Part shown: positions 19,039 through 35,480 of the stretch, piece by piece | Layout of the letters: the number at the start of each line of letters is the position of its first letter | Position numbering within the stretch: the stretch's first letter is position 1 | NCBI GenBank assembly: GCA_019748395.1 | Contig: JAIEPM010000047.1 | Location: forward strand, 15,084-79,083 | Length of the DNA: 64,000 bases | Direction: 5' to 3' | Source: Candidatus Obscuribacterales bacterium | GTDB lineage: Bacteria > Cyanobacteriota > Vampirovibrionia > Obscuribacterales > Obscuribacteraceae | Notes under the pieces: generated by a model | What the model saw: the letters and a program-made list of their open reading frames with translations, nothing else | What the model was told of the DNA's origin: nothing | Databases searched by the model: none | Position numbers and translations under genes: made by a program

Positions 19039-19827
19039 TCAGTTCTTGTTCTTGCTTTTATTCAGTTGAGATTGAACCGAATGTAAATCCACATCAGCTG
19101 CGATGCCGAATCCGTTTTTGGGTGGAGCTGGGAACTTCATTTTCTCAACCATTGAGATGGCTTTATCGTCGATTGATCTTGATCCCGAACTGACCGAAAG
19201 GAAGACTACATTCACTTTGCCCTCAGGGTTCAGTCCTACTCGAATAAACGGTCCGGGAGTTCCGGGCATGAGTTCTCGCCATTGCTTGTTGACTTGGCTT
19301 ATCATCGATTCTTTGTATAAGAGCTGTTCAGGGGTATCTGGTGGCGGTCCGGCTGTCAGTCCTCCGGCTGCTCCACCAGGAATGCTATTGAATTTGGGCG
19401 TCTGAGCCGGTGGCGTTGCTGTTTTGCTGCAAGCTGAATCCATGATCACTGTTTTTTTGCTTTGCTGCGGTTTGGCCGCTTTGGAGCTGGGGCTTTGAGA
19501 GAATGCTGGAATATTTGCAAGCAGCAGACTCGCTATCGCTGCTGCCCACTTAAGTGTTTTTCGCGCTGCGTTGCGGACCCGGCGCAATGCTAGCGGGCAG
19601 TCGTCCGTAATTATGGTGCCGTCCTGTCGTCGAAATATACGACCGCAAAATTTTCCTTCGGTTTGAATTATCAAATCACTCAGTTCTTTAGAGCTGAGTT
19701 CCGAGCAGTTGTATACATTTTTTTGACAGCCTCCGCAAAAACGAACTCTTTCGTCGCCCTCGAGTTCATCCCAATTCATCGCACAGGGAGTTGCGATATA
19801 AAACTTGTCTATTTCTTTTGTCATCAA
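19039..19827 (-). CDS. Cys5 zinc-ribbon-like / single-TM / TolA-TonB-C-like protein, tandem paralogue 1
   Basis: 262 aa. N-domain PCAMNWDELEGDERVRFCGGC...EGKFCGRIFRRQDGTIITDDCP, basic stretch LRRVRNAARK, then helix WAAAIASLLLANIPAFSQ. The C-terminal module is YKESMISQVNKQWREL...GKVNVVFLSVSSGSRSIDDKAISMVEKMKFPAPP. Confidence 0.85.
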   Translation of the reverse strand: MMTKEIDKFYIATPCAMNWDELEGDERVRFCGGCQKNVYNCSELSSKELSDLIIQTEGKFCGRIFRRQDGTIITDDCPLALRRVRNAARKTLKWAAAIASLLLANIPAFSQSPSSKAAKPQQSKKTVIMDSACSKTATPPAQTPKFNSIPGGAAGGLTAGPPPDTPEQLLYKESMISQVNKQWRELMPGTPGPFIRVGLNPEGKVNVVFLSVSSGSRSIDDKAISMVEKMKFPAPPKNGFGIAADVDLHSVQSQLNKSKNKN

Positions 19828-19835
19828 AATCAGTC

Positions 19836-20642
19836 CTATTTCCGGGTTTTGTCGGTTTTTGAGTAAACAGTCTGAAGATCTATTTCAATTTTTGTGCGCT
19901 CGGCAGGTGGATTTTCGTATTTGAGTTTCTTGATTAACTCAAGTGCTTTGGTATCAAGCACAAGATCTCCGGAGCTCCTGCTAATTTTCGCGCTCAATAT
20001 AATTCCGCCTTTGCCTATCTCTGCATTTACGATGGGACCAGCTTTTGCGCCTGCTTGAAGCCTCCATTCATCATTTATCTTTTTGATTGTGCTTTCTCTG
20101 TAATGACTGTCTTGTAAAGCTTTCACGGCCGGTGGTGTTGCTCCGATGCCGCCGTCGTATATTTCAATGTCTTTCCTGGCTCTGACTCTGCCTTCAATGA
20201 AATCGCGAGCAGGCTGTGTTTTTGAACTGTTTTTTGAGGAGCAAGATGAATCAATAAAAAAAGTTTTTTTGTTTTTGACGTCGGCTTCAGATTTTGATCC
20301 GGCGTTTGTGTTTTGAGCAAAGGCCGGCAAAGCTGTAAGCAGAAAAGCTGCAAAAGTTGCGGCAAAGTTCAAAGTCTTTCTGGCTGCATTGCGCAGCCGG
20401 CGAAGACCAATGGGACAGTCGTCAGTGAGAATGGTTCCGTCAGAGCGCCGATAGATGCGGGCACAAAATTTTCCTTCAGTATCCTGAATTAAGGCGCGCA
20501 GTTCATTTGAAGTCATTTTGGAAGTGTTATAAACGTTCTTACTGCAAACTCCACAAAAACGGACGCGTTCATCCCCGGTCATATTCTCCCAGCCCACCGA
20601 GCAGGGAGAGGCTATGAAAATTTGTTCTATCTCAATCGACAT
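19836..20642 (-). CDS. Cys5 zinc-ribbon-like / single-TM / TolA-TonB-C-like protein, tandem paralogue 2
   Basis: 268 aa with the same N-domain and the same Cys spacing (PCSVGWENMTGDERVRFCGVC...EGKFCARIYRRSDGTILTDDCP). A TM helix follows, and the C-terminal module is diverged. It lies 8 nt upstream of paralogue 1. Confidence 0.85.
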   Translation of the reverse strand: MSIEIEQIFIASPCSVGWENMTGDERVRFCGVCSKNVYNTSKMTSNELRALIQDTEGKFCARIYRRSDGTILTDDCPIGLRRLRNAARKTLNFAATFAAFLLTALPAFAQNTNAGSKSEADVKNKKTFFIDSSCSSKNSSKTQPARDFIEGRVRARKDIEIYDGGIGATPPAVKALQDSHYRESTIKKINDEWRLQAGAKAGPIVNAEIGKGGIILSAKISRSSGDLVLDTKALELIKKLKYENPPAERTKIEIDLQTVYSKTDKTRK

Positions 20643-20654
20643 CTACGCATACCT

Positions 20655-21458
20655 CTATTTGCCTTTCTCTTGATTTTTGGAATGAACCGTGTGTAAATCT
20701 ACCCTAAGGTTTGAATAGTCGGCAGCCTGTGTAGGAGCGGAAAATTTCATATTGCGCAGCATATTCAATGCTTTTGTGTCGACTAGCAGATCGCCGGAAC
20801 TAACGCTGATACTGCTACCGGCCAGCTTCCCCTCGGCTGTCAATGTTATCAACATTATCGGACCTGCTTTGCCGCCCTCCTCCTTCAACCATTGTGCGTT
20901 TATTTGCTGAATGCTTGATTCGATGTAGGCGCTAACCTGTGGACTTGGAGCTCGCGAAACCGCTACTTTTCCTCTCATAACCGCAGGCGGTGCTGCAACC
21001 ATTTCACCTTTTACCAACCTGGGCTGATCTGAAGGTGACTTCTTATCGGAACTGGAGCAAGTTGTGTCCATTAGAATCGTTGTTTTGCCCTTTCCGTCTT
21101 TTTTCTTGCTCGGCTCATCCTTTGCGGACTGAGCAAGCGCGGGCAAGGAGGCCAACAGTAAGGCTGATATTGCGGCTGTCCATTTGAGAGCCTTACGAGC
21201 TGCGTTTCGAACTCGGCGAAGCCCCTTTGGACAGTCGTCGGTAATTATTGTGCCGTCCGACCTTCGGTATATTTGAGCGCAAAACTTTCCTTCGGTTTTG
21301 ATTATTAACTCATTGAGCTCTTTTCGGCTCATTTCAGAAGCGTTATATACGTTTTTCCGGCAAAGACCGCAAAGTCGCTGGCGTTCGTCGCCGTCCATTT
21401 CGTCCCAGTCAGCCGCGCAGGGAGTAGCGATGTACATGCGCTCTATTTCGTAAATCAA
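20655..21458 (-). CDS. Cys5 zinc-ribbon-like / single-TM / TolA-TonB-C-like protein, tandem paralogue 3
   Basis: 267 aa with the N-domain PCAADWDEMDGDERQRLCGLC...EGKFCAQIYRRSDGTIITDDCP. A TM helix follows, and the C-terminal module is diverged. It lies 12 nt upstream of paralogue 2. Confidence 0.85.
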   Translation of the reverse strand: MIYEIERMYIATPCAADWDEMDGDERQRLCGLCRKNVYNASEMSRKELNELIIKTEGKFCAQIYRRSDGTIITDDCPKGLRRVRNAARKALKWTAAISALLLASLPALAQSAKDEPSKKKDGKGKTTILMDTTCSSSDKKSPSDQPRLVKGEMVAAPPAVMRGKVAVSRAPSPQVSAYIESSIQQINAQWLKEEGGKAGPIMLITLTAEGKLAGSSISVSSGDLLVDTKALNMLRNMKFSAPTQAADYSNLRVDLHTVHSKNQEKGK

Positions 21459-30463: not shown

Positions 30464-30606
30464 TTTAATAGGGCAACTGAGTGCGATCTACTTGCGCTGA
30501 AATCGATCTATCTGTAACTGCTGCCTGCAAATGAATAGTGGTTCTCGTTTTTGTTTGATTGCTGTAAGATGGGCTGATTAAGCCAAACTTGAGTCAGCGA
30601 AACCCC

Positions 30607-32766
30607 ATGCGCAAGTCGGACAAAGCTAAATCGCTCAAAAGAAGAATTGCCGATTTTCGCTTGACTGCGGCTTCCGTAATACTCGGTAACCTGCCTCATA
30701 TCTCCCACGGCACAAGGGATATGCGTCATATTAGCCATATGGCAGAACTATGCGAGCAATATAGCTTGCTTATAGTTTTAAATTGGATAGCCACCAAATA
30801 TGGTTTTCCTGTATGTGCCGAGTCTATATCGTCGGCCTCGACGCAAAATGCTTTGCCTTTGCTTAGTTGGCCTTCACTAGCCGATCGATATCCTCTGCAA
30901 GTCTACGGAGATCCTCGTGAGCTTGTCCGTACATTTGAAGAGCTCAAAACTCTTCTTGAGCAGTTGTTTGAAGCGAATTTCGAGCTTGTGGGCAGTATTT
31001 ATCAGCAGATGCTTTCTGCTCCTCTTGCCATCAAAAATGATGCCATTCCCTATATCGATCTCAAATCCGATCAGCGACTAAGTGGTGAGTTTTATACACC
31101 GGATTGGGTCGCTGATTATGCATTCGAGCAGTGGCTTAACGCTGATTCAGCTGCTTTATTGTCGCGCTTTAAGGAGCAAGATCCATCTCTATATCCGAAG
31201 ATTATCGACCCGTCCTGCGGCAGCGGTAACTTTTTGCATGCAGCATTGAGGCTCAGTTCTCGCCTGGAAATCTCTGCTCAGTCAAGAATTGAATTTCTGG
31301 CTAACGCTCTATATGGACGGGATATAGATGGAAGAGCCGTTCAACTGACGAAGCTTTGCTTATTGATCGCCGTTGGCGGAGAGCTTAACCGGTCGGCCGA
31401 AAAAGAAATCGAGACTTCGATAAACAGGCTCATCAAAACTCTCGATCGCAATATTCTTGTTGATGACAGTCTGCTTGCTGCAATTTCAGAAGGCGAGCAA
31501 GAAAAGTTCGATCTGGTAATTACAAACCCTCCATATATAAGTTTTGGTTCCAGAGATCAGCAAAATATCGGGGCTGTCTGGCAAAAGCTGTTGAAAAGGC
31601 GATTTCCTGCCTCAAGCGAATACAAAATCAGGTTTACATCGATTTTTCAGGAAATCGCCATAGACTGGAGCCGCCTTTCGGGGCGGTTTAGATCAGAGAG
31701 GCGCGGACAGGCAATTTTGCTTGTGCCCGATGCTTTCTTGAGCGGTCGCTACTACGAAAAACTGCGAAATTTGCTGCTTGAGAAAGTAAATTTGGAAGCT
31801 TTCACTGAACTGCCGGAAAGCACCATATCTGATGCCACTGTCGGTCGCTGGTGTCTGGCTCATTACAGTGAAAAGCCTGTCGACGATTCTGTTGACGAAA
31901 AACTGAAGCAGGTGAAGCTCTCTTCCATAGCCAGTCAGGAAGAGCTGAATAGCAGGCTGACATTTACATTGCCGAAAGTTTCTCTGGTCAGCACAGATCG
32001 GCAGCGCTTTCAATTGCTTTTTTCCGAAGCAGATCTTGAAATTTTTGAGTATTGCCGAAAGCTGCCCTGGCTGAAGTCGAAGCTGCAAGGTCATACAGGA
32101 ATTCGGGCCCGGCGCGGGCAGTCCTCTATAATTGCCGAGCATAAAAAAAATGAGCAGTGCTTTGCCGGTATCATATCCGGTGCCGAGCTTGCGCCTTACA
32201 GAATTGATTGGCAGGGAAAATGGCTTGAGATAGTTCCGGAGAATCTTTATGCCGGTGGATTTGCGGCAGAGACAATTAATGGTCCGAAAATTCTGCTCAG
32301 GCAAACCGCTGATTCTTTAATTGCGGCAGTAGATCAGTCCGGGCTCTATCATTTGAATAATGTTCATAGCTTCGTGCCGCTTTCCGGAAAGCTCAGAGAA
32401 TCTCGAACTTATTTTTTCTGTGCTCTTTTGAACTCGGCTTTCTATAGATACTTTTACCGGTTGAAAACAAGAGAGTACAAACGAGCTCTTGCTCAGGTCG
32501 ATATTGAAACTGTTGAGCACATGCCGCTGGCGCCTGAGAATGCTGCGCTTGAAGGCGAGCTTGAAGAGCTGGGCAGGAAGTTGCACTTGTTTCCCAGGAA
32601 GCATGATTTGTTTGAACAAATTGAAAGACTGGTTTTTGAACTTTTCGGATTTTCCGAGTCGATGCGCCTGCATATCATGAAGGACAGTCACACGGCAGCA
32701 TCAGGCCGGCGCCCGGCAGCCGGATGCTTCAGCCAAGTTCAGGAAATCGGCGGGCAATGGCGTTAA
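30607..32766 (+). CDS. N6-adenine DNA methyltransferase, gamma-class (Eco57I/TaqI-like) with TaqI-C-like target-recognition region; no nuclease recognised
   Basis: Motifs GEFYTPDWVADY, DPSCGSGNFL (motif I) and DLVITNPPYISFG (motif IV, NPPY). The C-terminal part includes LYHLNNVHSFVP...ALLNSAFYRYFYRLK. The start is uncertain: TTG at 30589, first ATG at 30607, further ATGs downstream. Confidence 0.85.
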   Translation: MRKSDKAKSLKRRIADFRLTAASVILGNLPHISHGTRDMRHISHMAELCEQYSLLIVLNWIATKYGFPVCAESISSASTQNALPLLSWPSLADRYPLQVYGDPRELVRTFEELKTLLEQLFEANFELVGSIYQQMLSAPLAIKNDAIPYIDLKSDQRLSGEFYTPDWVADYAFEQWLNADSAALLSRFKEQDPSLYPKIIDPSCGSGNFLHAALRLSSRLEISAQSRIEFLANALYGRDIDGRAVQLTKLCLLIAVGGELNRSAEKEIETSINRLIKTLDRNILVDDSLLAAISEGEQEKFDLVITNPPYISFGSRDQQNIGAVWQKLLKRRFPASSEYKIRFTSIFQEIAIDWSRLSGRFRSERRGQAILLVPDAFLSGRYYEKLRNLLLEKVNLEAFTELPESTISDATVGRWCLAHYSEKPVDDSVDEKLKQVKLSSIASQEELNSRLTFTLPKVSLVSTDRQRFQLLFSEADLEIFEYCRKLPWLKSKLQGHTGIRARRGQSSIIAEHKKNEQCFAGIISGAELAPYRIDWQGKWLEIVPENLYAGGFAAETINGPKILLRQTADSLIAAVDQSGLYHLNNVHSFVPLSGKLRESRTYFFCALLNSAFYRYFYRLKTREYKRALAQVDIETVEHMPLAPENAALEGELEELGRKLHLFPRKHDLFEQIERLVFELFGFSESMRLHIMKDSHTAASGRRPAAGCFSQVQEIGGQWR

Positions 32767-32832: not shown

Positions 32833-34230
32833 ATGACAATTAAGCTTCCACGCCTGATCAAAATTGCCTGTTTGACTTTCGCATTGAGTCTTTCGGCTCT
32901 GCCTGGCTTGCCTGCTCAGGCGCTTGGAGCTAAGAAAGCTGCAGCTGCTCCCGGCGAAGATATGGAAATCCGTGATAAATGGGCAATTGTGGTTGGTGTA
33001 AATAGATTCAATGATGCTGAAATACCGGCTCAGAAATTCGCTCAGAAAAGTTCGGCAGACCTGGCCAGGGCTTTGAAAGATCCTGATTCCGGACACTTCG
33101 GGCTGGATCATGTTCTGCTTGTAAACGGTAAAGATGCCACTAAAGCCGGTATAGAAAAGGCTTTTGAGCAGTGGCTCTATAAAAAAGCTTTGCCCGGCGA
33201 TCTGGTAATTATTTACTTTAATTCGCGTTTGCTGAAAAATTCAGCCGGAGATCCGGTTATCTGCGCTGTGGACTCGGTGATAACCGACCCCGATAAAACC
33301 GGTATCAATGTTCAAGAACTTCTGAAAACAGCAAAACAGCGCATCGGCTCCCCTCACATTTTGTGCATGATGGATTGCAGCCCGATGGGCAACAGTGCCG
33401 AGAAAGCTCCCCATGACTTGAAATGGCTGGCTAACAGCAGTGGCGTATCTGTATTTGCGGCTTCCGAGTTCAATAAAGTATCTCAGGATGACCCGCTCAA
33501 CATGCAGTCGATGTTCTTGCATTATTTTGTCGAGGCGCTTAAAACCGGTGCCGGCAATTATCCTCTGGCTATGACTGCCGAGTATGTCTGGCAGAAGGTT
33601 CAGGAAGCAAGTAAGGTTTCGGGTAATCCTCAAACACCGATTCTTTCCCTGGCAAGCGAAGACTCTCAGATTGTCGCTATCCCTGTGGGCATAATGGTTC
33701 GCAGCTCATTGCCCGACAAAGGCATCGCGATCGGACACCCGATCGAAAACCTGGGCATGGAGCGCCCGGACATTGTCGCGCCGACGCTCAACGCCACAAA
33801 GCCTGCCATAAAGATTCAATCGCGAGCTCCTGTCAATAGCAAAACTGTCGCAACAGCCAAGGCTCCCAGTCAGATCGCGCCGCCCACTAAAACGAAAGCT
33901 GTGGCGGCAGATGACGATGAGGAAGATGATTTTGACCCGAATTTGGACTTGCGCCCTTATGTAGCTAAAATAAAACAAGATATACAGAAAAAATGGCAGG
34001 CACCAAAAGGTTTTGAAAGTCGTCGGGTTACAACCATGTTCAGCATTATGAGAGACGGTAAAATCGAGAATGCCTCCGTAGTTGAGAGCTCCGGAAATGA
34101 AGATGTCGATAAGTCGGCTCTGGCTGCCCTACAAGCTGCTTCACCTCTAGATCCTCTTCCTAAAGGTTCGCCGCGCTCAGTAGATCTAAAATATGTGTTT
34201 GACTGGAAAACGAAAGTCACAACACCCTGA
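32833..34230 (+). CDS. Secreted caspase-like (peptidase C14/orthocaspase-like) domain fused to TolA/TonB_2-like C-terminal domain; catalytic His apparently missing
   Basis: Signal peptide (IACLTFALSLSALPGLPAQA). The p20-like region is KWAIVVGVNRFND...DLVIIYFNSRLL...HILCMMDCSPMGN. The Cys position is kept (DCS), but the expected SGHG reads NSRL. After an Ala/Pro/Lys linker, the C-terminus is LRPYVAKIKQDIQKKWQAP...IMRDGKIENASVVESSGNEDVDKSALAALQAASPLDPLP. Confidence 0.75.
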   Translation: MTIKLPRLIKIACLTFALSLSALPGLPAQALGAKKAAAAPGEDMEIRDKWAIVVGVNRFNDAEIPAQKFAQKSSADLARALKDPDSGHFGLDHVLLVNGKDATKAGIEKAFEQWLYKKALPGDLVIIYFNSRLLKNSAGDPVICAVDSVITDPDKTGINVQELLKTAKQRIGSPHILCMMDCSPMGNSAEKAPHDLKWLANSSGVSVFAASEFNKVSQDDPLNMQSMFLHYFVEALKTGAGNYPLAMTAEYVWQKVQEASKVSGNPQTPILSLASEDSQIVAIPVGIMVRSSLPDKGIAIGHPIENLGMERPDIVAPTLNATKPAIKIQSRAPVNSKTVATAKAPSQIAPPTKTKAVAADDDEEDDFDPNLDLRPYVAKIKQDIQKKWQAPKGFESRRVTTMFSIMRDGKIENASVVESSGNEDVDKSALAALQAASPLDPLPKGSPRSVDLKYVFDWKTKVTTP

Positions 34231-34256: not shown

Positions 34257-34844
34257 ATGGACGAAGTAAATCCCTCCGAGCAGATTCAATCAGAAGATAT
34301 GAGCGAAAAGCGCTCGCCGCACCGCTCAGCTTCGATGCCTGCTTCATCGGCTATGCCCGAGTTCTTAAGCCAATATATCGAAGTCTCTAAGCGGGTTTTG
34401 CTGAGCCCGAATCTGTTTTTTAGCGAAATGAAGCTTGAAGGAGGGCTGAAAGAACCAGCCGTCTATCTGGCTATCAGCGCGGCGGGTCATGCTCTGCTTT
34501 CTGCCGTTATGAAGTTCAAGCCTCTGTCCATTCCTTCCGATTTTACTTTTGAGCTTGTGGCCGGTTTCTTAATTGCCGGTGTGGCTTATTTTCTGGGCAC
34601 GGCAATGGGCGCTAAATCTTCTTACGAGGCTACTTTTAAGGTGATTGCCTACACAAGTTGTGTGCGCATTCTGGCTGCGCTGCCCGGCATCGGCGCGCTT
34701 GTCCCGCTCTGGTCTCTGGTGCTGCATTTTCTGGGTCTGCGGAAGGTTCTGGGGCTCAACCCGGTGCAAATAGTCAGTATTATGGTGATGAGCAGTTTGC
34801 TCATGGCTGTTCTACAATTAGCCAAGTTTTTCCATCTCTTTTAA
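34257..34844 (+). CDS. Yip1-like polytopic membrane protein
   Basis: 195 aa. The hydrophilic N-terminus leads into LLSPNLFFSEM, followed by about five hydrophobic helices, which is the Yip1-domain layout. It starts 26 nt after the caspase-like gene. Confidence 0.6.
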   Translation: MDEVNPSEQIQSEDMSEKRSPHRSASMPASSAMPEFLSQYIEVSKRVLLSPNLFFSEMKLEGGLKEPAVYLAISAAGHALLSAVMKFKPLSIPSDFTFELVAGFLIAGVAYFLGTAMGAKSSYEATFKVIAYTSCVRILAALPGIGALVPLWSLVLHFLGLRKVLGLNPVQIVSIMVMSSLLMAVLQLAKFFHLF

Positions 34845-35003: not shown

Positions 35004-35423
35004 ATGAGCGCGGAATTCGAAGACTTTAAGCCGGCAACCAAGGGTGTTGAAAACAACGCCAAAGAGGATGCTGCTGAAACCCACGATCCTTTCGTCAATG
35101 ACAGGCTCTCTAAGCCGGAGACCCCTAAGCTTGCCGAGAGTAAATCCAGCGAAGCTGATAACAAGATTGGCGACAAAACTGTTGCCGACCTGAGAAAGGC
35201 GATTTCAGGATTTGATGAAGCCAAGCACGGCTCAGACTATGGTAAGTATTGTCTTGAGAACTGCACGCCGGAGCAGAATCAGAAAATCGTTTCGGACTTG
35301 ATCAAGTCTATGCAGGACAAAATGGCTAAGTTGAGTGGTCCTCACTCTGATGCGACGATCACCAATGAAACCAAGCAAGGCATTGAGAATCTGATGGCAG
35401 CTTTCAAAAAGGCTTCCAACTAA
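35004..35423 (+). CDS. Small acidic hypothetical protein
   Basis: 139-aa ORF with AGGGA upstream of the ATG. No signal peptide and no recognised family. A strong terminator follows it. Confidence 0.55.
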   Translation: MSAEFEDFKPATKGVENNAKEDAAETHDPFVNDRLSKPETPKLAESKSSEADNKIGDKTVADLRKAISGFDEAKHGSDYGKYCLENCTPEQNQKIVSDLIKSMQDKMAKLSGPHSDATITNETKQGIENLMAAFKKASN

Positions 35424-35445
35424 ATTCTGAATCAAAAGCATTTTG

Positions 35446-35480
35446 AAGTCCCGTCTGAAAAGGCGGGACTTTAGTTTTGT
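35446..35480 (+). terminator. Rho-independent terminator
   Basis: AAGTCCCG(T)C (35446-35455) pairs with GGCGGGACTT (35462-35471) around a GAAAA loop, followed by TAGTTTTGTG. Confidence 0.65.

Follow-up and report, generated by a model that had tools for sequence, protein, structure and literature searches.

Pseudo-orthocaspases, which make up 8.6% of the caspase homologues in bacteria, were defined from sequence (Klemencic et al. 2019, PMC6426788). They are p20 homologues in which one or both residues of the His-Cys dyad are substituted and in which no metacaspase p10 is recognisable; the dyads Tyr-Ser and Tyr-Asn are found in Cyanobacteria, and both aspartates of the S1 pocket are reported as typically conserved (PMC6426788). 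SyOC of Synechocystis 6803 is one pseudo-orthocaspase that has been studied genetically (PMC7889975). Here, a gene predicted to encode an exported pseudo-orthocaspase with a TonB/TolA-type tail was analysed in a 64,000-nucleotide (nt) stretch of contig JAIEPM010000047.1 (GCA_019748395.1; Candidatus Obscuribacterales bacterium), which is called the window below and to which all positions refer. The 465-amino-acid (aa) protein consists of a predicted signal peptide, a caspase-fold domain, a disordered linker, and a C-terminal domain of the TonB_2/TolA domain III type (Table 1). No mention of an orthocaspase or Peptidase_C14 together with TonB, nor of the fusion to TonB_C, was found in the literature searched, and TonB does not occur in a 2012 survey (PMC3501461). 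The account as a whole is drawn from sequence and predicted structure in uncultured organisms.

Like the described pseudo-orthocaspases (PMC6426788), the protein is a prokaryotic C14 homologue with a substituted dyad, a retained fold, and a retained Asp two residues before the Cys column, and extra C-terminal domains are possible in both. It differs from them in its dyad, which in this family is Arg or Lys with Ser, Ala, Gln, or Asn rather than Tyr-Ser or Tyr-Asn, and in the loss of the first S1 Asp (Ser73 here; Asn or Ser in the family). It also differs in its Sec-type signal, its fusion to TonB_C, and its non-photosynthetic host, for which the proposed link of pseudo-orthocaspases to photosynthesis cannot apply. 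With regard to the published definition, the C-terminal half of the caspase fold was structurally present.

The tail has the fold of TolA domain III and of the TonB C-terminal domain (TonB-CTD) (PDB entries 6s3w, 1lr0, 6sly, and 5lw8; PMC7066135), and, as in those proteins, it follows a long extended linker and is predicted to be periplasmic. Unlike TolA and TonB, the protein has no motor-coupled N-terminal helix and no tolQR, exbBD, tolB, or pal neighbours, and its N-terminal part is a globular dead protease. The TonB_C fold of a TonB energy transducer was found, but neither the membrane helix nor linkage to exbBD, which lies on contig C605 of the same genome; in place of the tolQ-tolR-tolA-tolB-pal context of TolA, the neighbours are rsmI, a methyltransferase gene, a Yip1-domain gene, rpsT, and murC. 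By their defining features, the protein is neither TonB nor TolA.

Domains of the encoded protein

The open reading frame (ORF) reported in the initial annotation was uninterrupted over exactly the coordinates given there, with AGAGG upstream of its ATG, and the motifs quoted from it were all present (IVVGVN, residues 52 to 57; DLVIIYF, 123 to 129; YFNSRLL, 128 to 134; MMDCS, 179 to 183). The ORF is a real, constrained gene. DNA of the window was present in drinking-water and sediment DNA metagenome runs; no RNA run carrying the gene was among the metagenome runs shown, which were drinking-water and sediment DNA only.

In structure prediction, the N-terminal domain has the caspase fold (caspase-haemoglobinase fold). 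An AlphaFold2 (AF2) model built on the family alignment had predicted local distance difference test (pLDDT) values mostly above 94 over residues 50 to 290, with one 10-residue block at 84, and the order of its strands matched a complete caspase domain with the p10-like half included. Foldseek searches of PDB with this domain matched MALT1 paracaspase (4e-12), as well as Geobacter GSU0716, caspases-9, -8, -7, and -3, CED-3, and the metacaspases of yeast (Yca1) and Candida, with 245 to 290 aligned columns across the matches. Features and structure in the ESM Atlas led to caspase-family clusters only. The concern that the region might not have a C14 fold at all, which had been raised at the outset, is thus contradicted by the AF2 model and Foldseek.

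Sequence searches with the query alone gave no Pfam match to Peptidase_C14 (PF00656) at E ≤ 1, a gap that was resolved through orthologues, profiles, and structure. Peptidase_C14 was matched by 29 of 71 orthologues individually (best E value, 2.9e-10). NCBIfam model NF047832 (caspase, EACC1-associated type) matched residues 50 to 259 at 1.1e-15, a sub-threshold hit (57.7 bits against a cut-off of 140). Seventy-three full-length homologues were retrieved. A profile of the N-terminal domain matched 30,197 proteins of a representative library at E ≤ 0.001 and 8,056 at E ≤ 1e-10, the lower-ranked of the listed matches being canonical proteins with an intact His/Cys (H/C) dyad. Against PDB, a phmmer search with the query and searches with two family profiles yielded only marginal caspase p10 matches (E values of 0.5 to 3), and Yca1 and AtMC4 were reached only with a profile that was dominated by canonical relatives and had the query as its first row. 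A phmmer search of PDB with one canonical relative returned only designer-PPR repeat matches, which were discarded as spurious. As judged from these comparisons, C14 homology holds at the family level.

The n/h/c layout of the annotated signal peptide was visible in residues 1 to 30, where the n-region is basic, the hydrophobic core ends in Pro/Gly, and A28-Q29-A30 precedes L31. In nearly all N-termini listed for the family, a hydrophobic stretch was present and an A-x-A-type site commonly came after it; a few had lipobox-like sites. Cleavage of the signal peptide and export of the protein are predicted from these features. Export had been described as unusual for a caspase-like domain, a view that the data did not bear out: all seven C14 paralogues in the genome from which the window comes (the host genome, 90% complete) also start with hydrophobic, signal-like N-termini, and they have the motifs R-D-K-W-A and F-x-x-D-H-V in common with the query. 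ESM Atlas clusters of Melainabacteria caspases also carried envelope domains such as BamE and TPR.

The linker begins with conserved G301-H302-P303 and an R-P-D motif, which are followed by a stretch rich in Ala, Pro, Lys, and Thr and then by an acidic patch (DDDEEDD); G301 is invariant, and H302 and P312 are near-invariant. Residues 318 to 361 had pLDDT values below 50 and were modelled as disordered, in keeping with the flexible Ala/Pro/Lys/Asp linker first described. The module beyond it had been called TolA-C/TonB_2-like, and this assignment was supported. Pfam models matched the query at residues 374 to 450 for TonB_2 (5.5e-14) and at 4.8e-8 for TonB_C, with TolA sub-threshold, and PDB sequence searches matched TolA and TonB. 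The full-length TolA models TIGR02794 (tolA_full, 5.9e-10; 38.9 bits against a cut-off of 59.45) and NF007065 (16.6 bits against 213) were matched through the C-terminal part only. The C-terminal domain was modelled at a pLDDT of about 90, and Foldseek of this domain modelled alone matched Helicobacter pylori TonB-CTD with a template modelling (TM) score of 0.70 and Pseudomonas aeruginosa TolA III with TM scores of 0.58 to 0.65, including the complex with a TolB peptide (6s3w). An S-S-G...D...A-A signature was common to the tail and P. aeruginosa TolA. Mean pairwise identity in the family was 64% for the C-terminal domain, 40% for the caspase domain, and 34% for the linker; conservation is highest in the C-terminal domain.

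Decay of the active site

The alignment register at the catalytic columns was fixed in three independent ways: against the paralogues of the host genome, by aligning the 215 retrieved proteins to the family profile with hmmalign, and with the canonical-dominated profile against solved metacaspases. The retrieved proteins were read as a fusion set (122 proteins with no H/C dyad and a TonB-type tail), all non-H/C relatives (129 proteins), and canonical H/C proteins (86 proteins). Where the query has Y-F-N-S-R-L-L and M-D-C-S-P-M-G, the seven paralogues have F-I-S-S-H-G-S and L-D-A-C-H-S-G. The 86 canonical proteins carry His at the column of Arg132, and the s-t-H-G-s and l-D-a-C-h-S-G columns of the canonical-dominated profile aligned with HYSGHG and DSCHSG of Yca1 (4f6o) and AtMC4 (6w8s). 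All three comparisons place Arg132 at the catalytic His column and support the His-to-Arg replacement proposed in the initial annotation. The residue at this column was Arg in 93, Lys in 12, and His in 4 of the 122 fusion proteins (other residues in 13), and Arg132 is followed by Leu where canonical proteins have Gly, so that the (S/T)-H-G motif is absent. A histidine of the motif SGHFGLDH had been considered as an alternative catalytic residue; H88 and H93 instead aligned with the F-x-x-D-H-V motif, which is common to canonical and pseudo members, and not with the catalytic column.

The catalytic Cys had been assigned to MMDCS, which was wrong by one residue. Since the canonical motif is D-x-C (D-[ATSC]-C-[HNY]-S-G in full), Ser183 stands at the catalytic Cys column and Cys182 lies one residue early, and Ser183 is followed by P-M-G and not by H-S-G. 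Only 1 of the 122 fusion proteins had a Cys at the catalytic column, and the column of Cys182 was occupied by Cys in just 10 of the 129 non-H/C proteins. The column of Ser183 held Ser (60 proteins), Ala (21), Gln (14), Asn (11), and other residues, and Asp181 was kept in 128 of the 129 non-H/C relatives. All 86 canonical proteins have Asp in the position of the first S1 Asp, where the non-H/C set has Asn (79), Ser (38), and Asp (6).

Invariant or near-invariant canonical positions that were degenerate in the family included D73, H132, G133, C183, S185, G186, E219 (of the S-W-E motif), and T229; among the active-site invariants compared, Asp181 alone was retained. Other positions were conserved in the family and absent from canonical proteins, namely a basic residue at the His column (86%), K-K-A-L-P at residues 117 to 121, and Pro184. 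As the dyad and the other active-site invariants have decayed, the protein is classed from its alignments as a full pseudo-orthocaspase, double-substituted and with a decayed active-site shell. Cys144 and Cys178 were considered as a disulfide pair, and no claim is made for it, as they did not covary strictly (both present in 65 proteins, one only in 48, and neither in 16). A second dead caspase paralogue was found in the host genome, cut by a contig end (G000:C393:5-583, - strand). It has Arg at the His column and E-S-S-G-S-G in place of D-x-C-H-S-G, and in the tree of caspase domains it branches next to the fusion clade as its nearest outgroup (support, 84).

Distribution and genomic neighbourhood

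About 120 sequence clusters (50% identity) shared the architecture of pseudo-caspase and TonB_C, and the named records with the gene were almost all from Candidatus Obscuribacterales, Obscuribacteraceae, Obscuribacter, and Melainabacteria metagenome-assembled genomes (MAGs). MAG records labelled Drouetiella sp., Proteobacteria bacterium, and Flavobacterium psychrophilum (L052, L054, L057, and L068) also held an Obscuribacterales-type gene with 35 to 37% identity, and their bin labels look wrong. Among 151 sampled genomes of the class, searched at E ≤ 1e-20, all 30 genomes of the family to which the window belongs were matched, about 28 of them with clear two-domain orthologues on inspection. 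Other families of the class gave matches at the level of TonB_C only, with the exception of a sister family of the same order. The orthologue in that family (476 aa) adjoins rsmI and has a more degenerate caspase domain, an R-R-P-D linker motif, and a tail 46% identical to that of the query. The architecture is restricted to Obscuribacterales, and the gene is a single-copy, family-wide lineage core gene.

In a FastTree phylogeny of caspase domains, the fusion proteins formed one clade (68 rows; local support, 96) apart from canonical H/C proteins. The initial annotation had regarded a fusion of C14 with TonB_2 as unusual, but catalytically intact fusions exist as well. Two of these, P0161 and P0171, carry the two Pfam domains in an identical order but keep the His, Gly, Cys, and Ser-Gly of the active site, fall outside the pseudo clade, and are not orthologues. 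The closest TonB_C domains outside the order were on TolA-like, membrane-anchored proteins with three transmembrane (3-TM) segments and long linkers, and the closest in the host genome (36% identity) was on the TonB_2 protein beside exbB-exbD on contig C605.

In G045 (3.0 Mb, 96% complete), a 156-aa ORF encodes TonB_C preceded only by a signal peptide and a short acidic linker, with a tail 54% identical to that of the query; it lies at L105 6911-7381 (+ strand) on contig C3, directly after ftsY and before rpsT-murC-murB, and rsmI is not there. Genome G039 (97% complete) keeps the fusion gene, and no C14 match was found in it. In G062 (98% complete), the only C14 Pfam match was the fusion itself.

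All 20 genomes examined, and three further contigs, have the gene in the slot between rsmI and rpsT-murC-murB. Upstream, rsmI is divergent, and bacA lies beyond it in most loci; downstream are a small acidic ORF, rpsT, murC, and murB, with ddl after murB in most loci (opposite-stranded or undetected in four). Where present, genes for a methyltransferase and for a Yip1-like protein abut or overlap the pseudo-caspase gene (Table 1). The methyltransferase gene is no mobile orphan, as its counterparts occupy the same position with 33 to 49% identity. The acidic ORF at 35004 to 35423 (+ strand) encodes no signal peptide; counterparts of 100 to 175 aa were found just before rpsT in 20 of 20 loci (L009-L028), with sequences almost unalignable even within the genus. 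These genes were considered as operon partners and set aside: the methyltransferase and Yip1-like genes are facultative, and the acidic ORF is constant but barely alignable. No neighbour is a constant candidate partner.

Table 1. Features of the pseudo-caspase/TonB_C gene and its surroundings in the window
Feature	Position	Strand	Basis or remark
Whole coding sequence	32833..34230	+	465 codons and TGA stop, uninterrupted; architecture shared by about 120 homologous clusters
Predicted Sec signal peptide, residues 1-30	32833..32922	+	Read from sequence; cleavage predicted
Caspase-fold (C14) pseudo-protease domain, residues 45-295, p10-like half included	32965..33717	+	AF2, Foldseek, and Pfam matches of orthologues
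Ser73 at the column of the first S1-pocket Asp ("KDA/NDA" Asp)	33049..33051	+	Aligns to NDA of Yca1 and AtMC4
Arg132 (CGT) at the catalytic His column	33226..33228	+	Alignments to paralogues, 86 canonical proteins, and Yca1/AtMC4
Asp181-Cys182-Ser183, counterpart of canonical D-x-C	33373..33381	+	Ser183 at the Cys column, Cys182 at D+1
Linker, residues 296-372	33718..33948	+	pLDDT, composition, length, and conservation
TonB_2/TolA-domain-III-type C-terminal domain, residues 373-460, alpha-beta-beta-alpha-beta	33949..34212	+	Pfam, PDB, AF2, and Foldseek
N6-adenine methyltransferase (Eco57I/TaqI_C type), upstream, co-directional, facultative	30589..32766	+	12/20 loci and L001, L003, L005; sometimes overlaps the pseudo-caspase gene
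Yip1-domain multi-pass membrane protein, 26 nt after the stop, facultative	34257..34844	+	Multi-TM ORF downstream in 7/20 loci and L001, L003
Strongest terminator-like hairpin (14 pairs and T-run), likely end of the co-directional gene run	35443..35474	+	Follows the acidic ORF

The host genome contained at least 16 TonB_2 matches, in architectures with 3-TM segments, with a single TM segment, or with a signal peptide only. Examples were G000:C605:13568-15394, C600:9530-13098, C625:1435-1920, and C269:4993-5619, and three 3-TM proteins start with the motif L-P-G-L-G-Q-x-Y-N-G. Only one exbB-exbD pair was found, on contig C605, beside a different, 3-TM TonB_2 protein. Neither a TonB-dependent receptor barrel (apart from a 21-bit Plug match) nor a TolB N-domain was found in the 90%-complete assembly of the host genome. 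Within the window, three tandem paralogues at 19039 to 21458 (- strand) each encode a Cys-rich cytoplasmic N-domain followed by a single membrane helix, a linker, and a tail that matches TonB_2/TonB_C weakly. That they end in such a module had been noted before and was confirmed at E values of 5e-5, 1e-5, and 1e-2 (the third below the Pfam cut-off); their tails are 17 to 24% identical to that of the pseudo-caspase protein. A split, "Rosetta-stone" counterpart of the fusion was considered at L006 2793-6182 (- strand; G000:C465), where a DUF4384 and C14 gene lies about 630 bp downstream of a gene for a 394-aa TonB_2 protein on the same strand, perhaps with an opposite-strand ORF between them; it was rejected as weak evidence.

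Candidate role in the cell envelope

The protein probably acts as a non-catalytic, un-energised periplasmic adaptor, in which an exported pseudo-orthocaspase is joined through a flexible tether of about 70 residues to a module of the TolA-III/TonB-CTD type. After Sec export, the C-terminal domain would use beta-strand augmentation to dock on a short peptide in an envelope partner, by analogy with the TolA-TolB and TonB-receptor complexes, in which this is the mechanism (PMC7066135). We infer that docking would be passive and not energised, because the protein has no N-terminal membrane helix coupling to ExbB-ExbD or TolQ-TolR and its gene does not lie next to motor genes. On its flexible tether, the dead caspase head would then provide a periplasmic binding or scaffolding surface and would not be a protease. 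Several points weigh against the adaptor. No partner was identified, and the neighbours that might have hinted at a complex, the methyltransferase and Yip1-like genes, are only facultative. The classical ligands of the TonB/TolA fold seem to be missing from the host genome. An uncleaved anchor would also change the topology of the protein, for which cleavage is predicted from the N-terminal sequence.

The last of these points leads to a membrane-anchored passive tether, in which an uncleaved N-terminal segment would hold the protein across the periplasm, from the inner membrane to an outer-membrane partner, in the manner of a motor-less TolA. In its layout, with a single hydrophobic segment at the N-terminus, then a long extended linker, then a tail like that of TolA, the protein resembles TolA and TonB, and the sub-threshold tolA_full match, the membrane-anchored, long-linker proteins that carry the closest TonB_C domains in other orders, and the lipobox-like sites of a few family members all point the same way. 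The hydrophobic core, however, is short and ends in Pro/Gly and A-x-A, as is typical of cleaved signals, and this recurs across the family; no polar motif is conserved as in the TonB/TolA helix, and no motor genes are adjacent. Such a tether is possible but doubtful.

A regulator of the c-FLIP type appears improbable. c-FLIP and Trypanosoma brucei MCA4 have a dead caspase fold, act by binding, and work with an active partner protease. By that scheme, the dead domain would pair with an active exported orthocaspase and switch the enzyme or park it at the outer membrane via the TonB_C tail. Six canonical C14 paralogues with signal-like N-termini, the shared R-D-K-W-A start motif, and about 30% identity are encoded in the host genome, up to 22 canonical C14 genes occur in genomes of the family, and the structural neighbours of the domain include dimeric MALT1 and the caspase-8:c-FLIP complex (c-FLIP also in PDB 3h11). 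But the near-complete genomes G039 and G062 keep the fusion without a canonical C14 gene, so that the gene, unlike c-FLIP and MCA4, persists in genomes without an active homologue, and in 20 loci it never adjoins an active paralogue. Characterised bacterial and fungal metacaspase-type enzymes, moreover, are generally described as acting as monomers.

The uneven conservation of the two domains raises the question of whether the caspase domain is a functionless relic and TonB_C alone matters. The C-terminal domain is far more conserved, the slot in G045 holds a signal peptide and TonB_C only, and the N-terminal domain of the sister-family orthologue is even more degenerate. Yet about 28 of 30 genomes retain the N-terminal domain, whose sequences are about 40% identical and whose fold is predicted very confidently, and this domain has family-specific conserved positions that canonical relatives lack; a relic of 250 residues would be expected to shrink or vanish. 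This explanation is therefore held to be quite unlikely. Residual proteolysis through non-canonical residues is scarcely credible from the alignments, since neither Cys182, which lies beside the catalytic column in the query, nor Ser183, which lies in it, is conserved, and the Gly after His, the Ser-Gly after Cys, the first S1 Asp, and the Glu on the p10 side are all lost.

Beyond the passive adaptor itself, a more speculative proposal, which we advance only tentatively, is that the head and the TolA-III-type tail form a lineage-specific, motor-less structural component of the Obscuribacterales envelope, for example one that links an outer-membrane or wall partner to a periplasmic structure during wall growth, and that it was recruited where TonB/TolA ligands are not detectable. 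If this is true, the caspase fold would serve as a purely structural or binding periplasmic module, independent of any active caspase.

Bacterial caspase homologues, and dead forms especially, have no settled function. The gene described here combines four properties that are useful in this respect: it is single-copy throughout the family, its product is assigned to a defined compartment (the periplasm, by prediction), it has a defined docking module, and it survives without an active caspase homologue. Its survival in genomes without an active caspase sets its role apart from the regulation of proteases and from schemes of cell death. The ligand of the conserved C-terminal domain would offer a handle both on the function of a pseudo-orthocaspase and on the unusually large TonB_C set of Melainabacteria.

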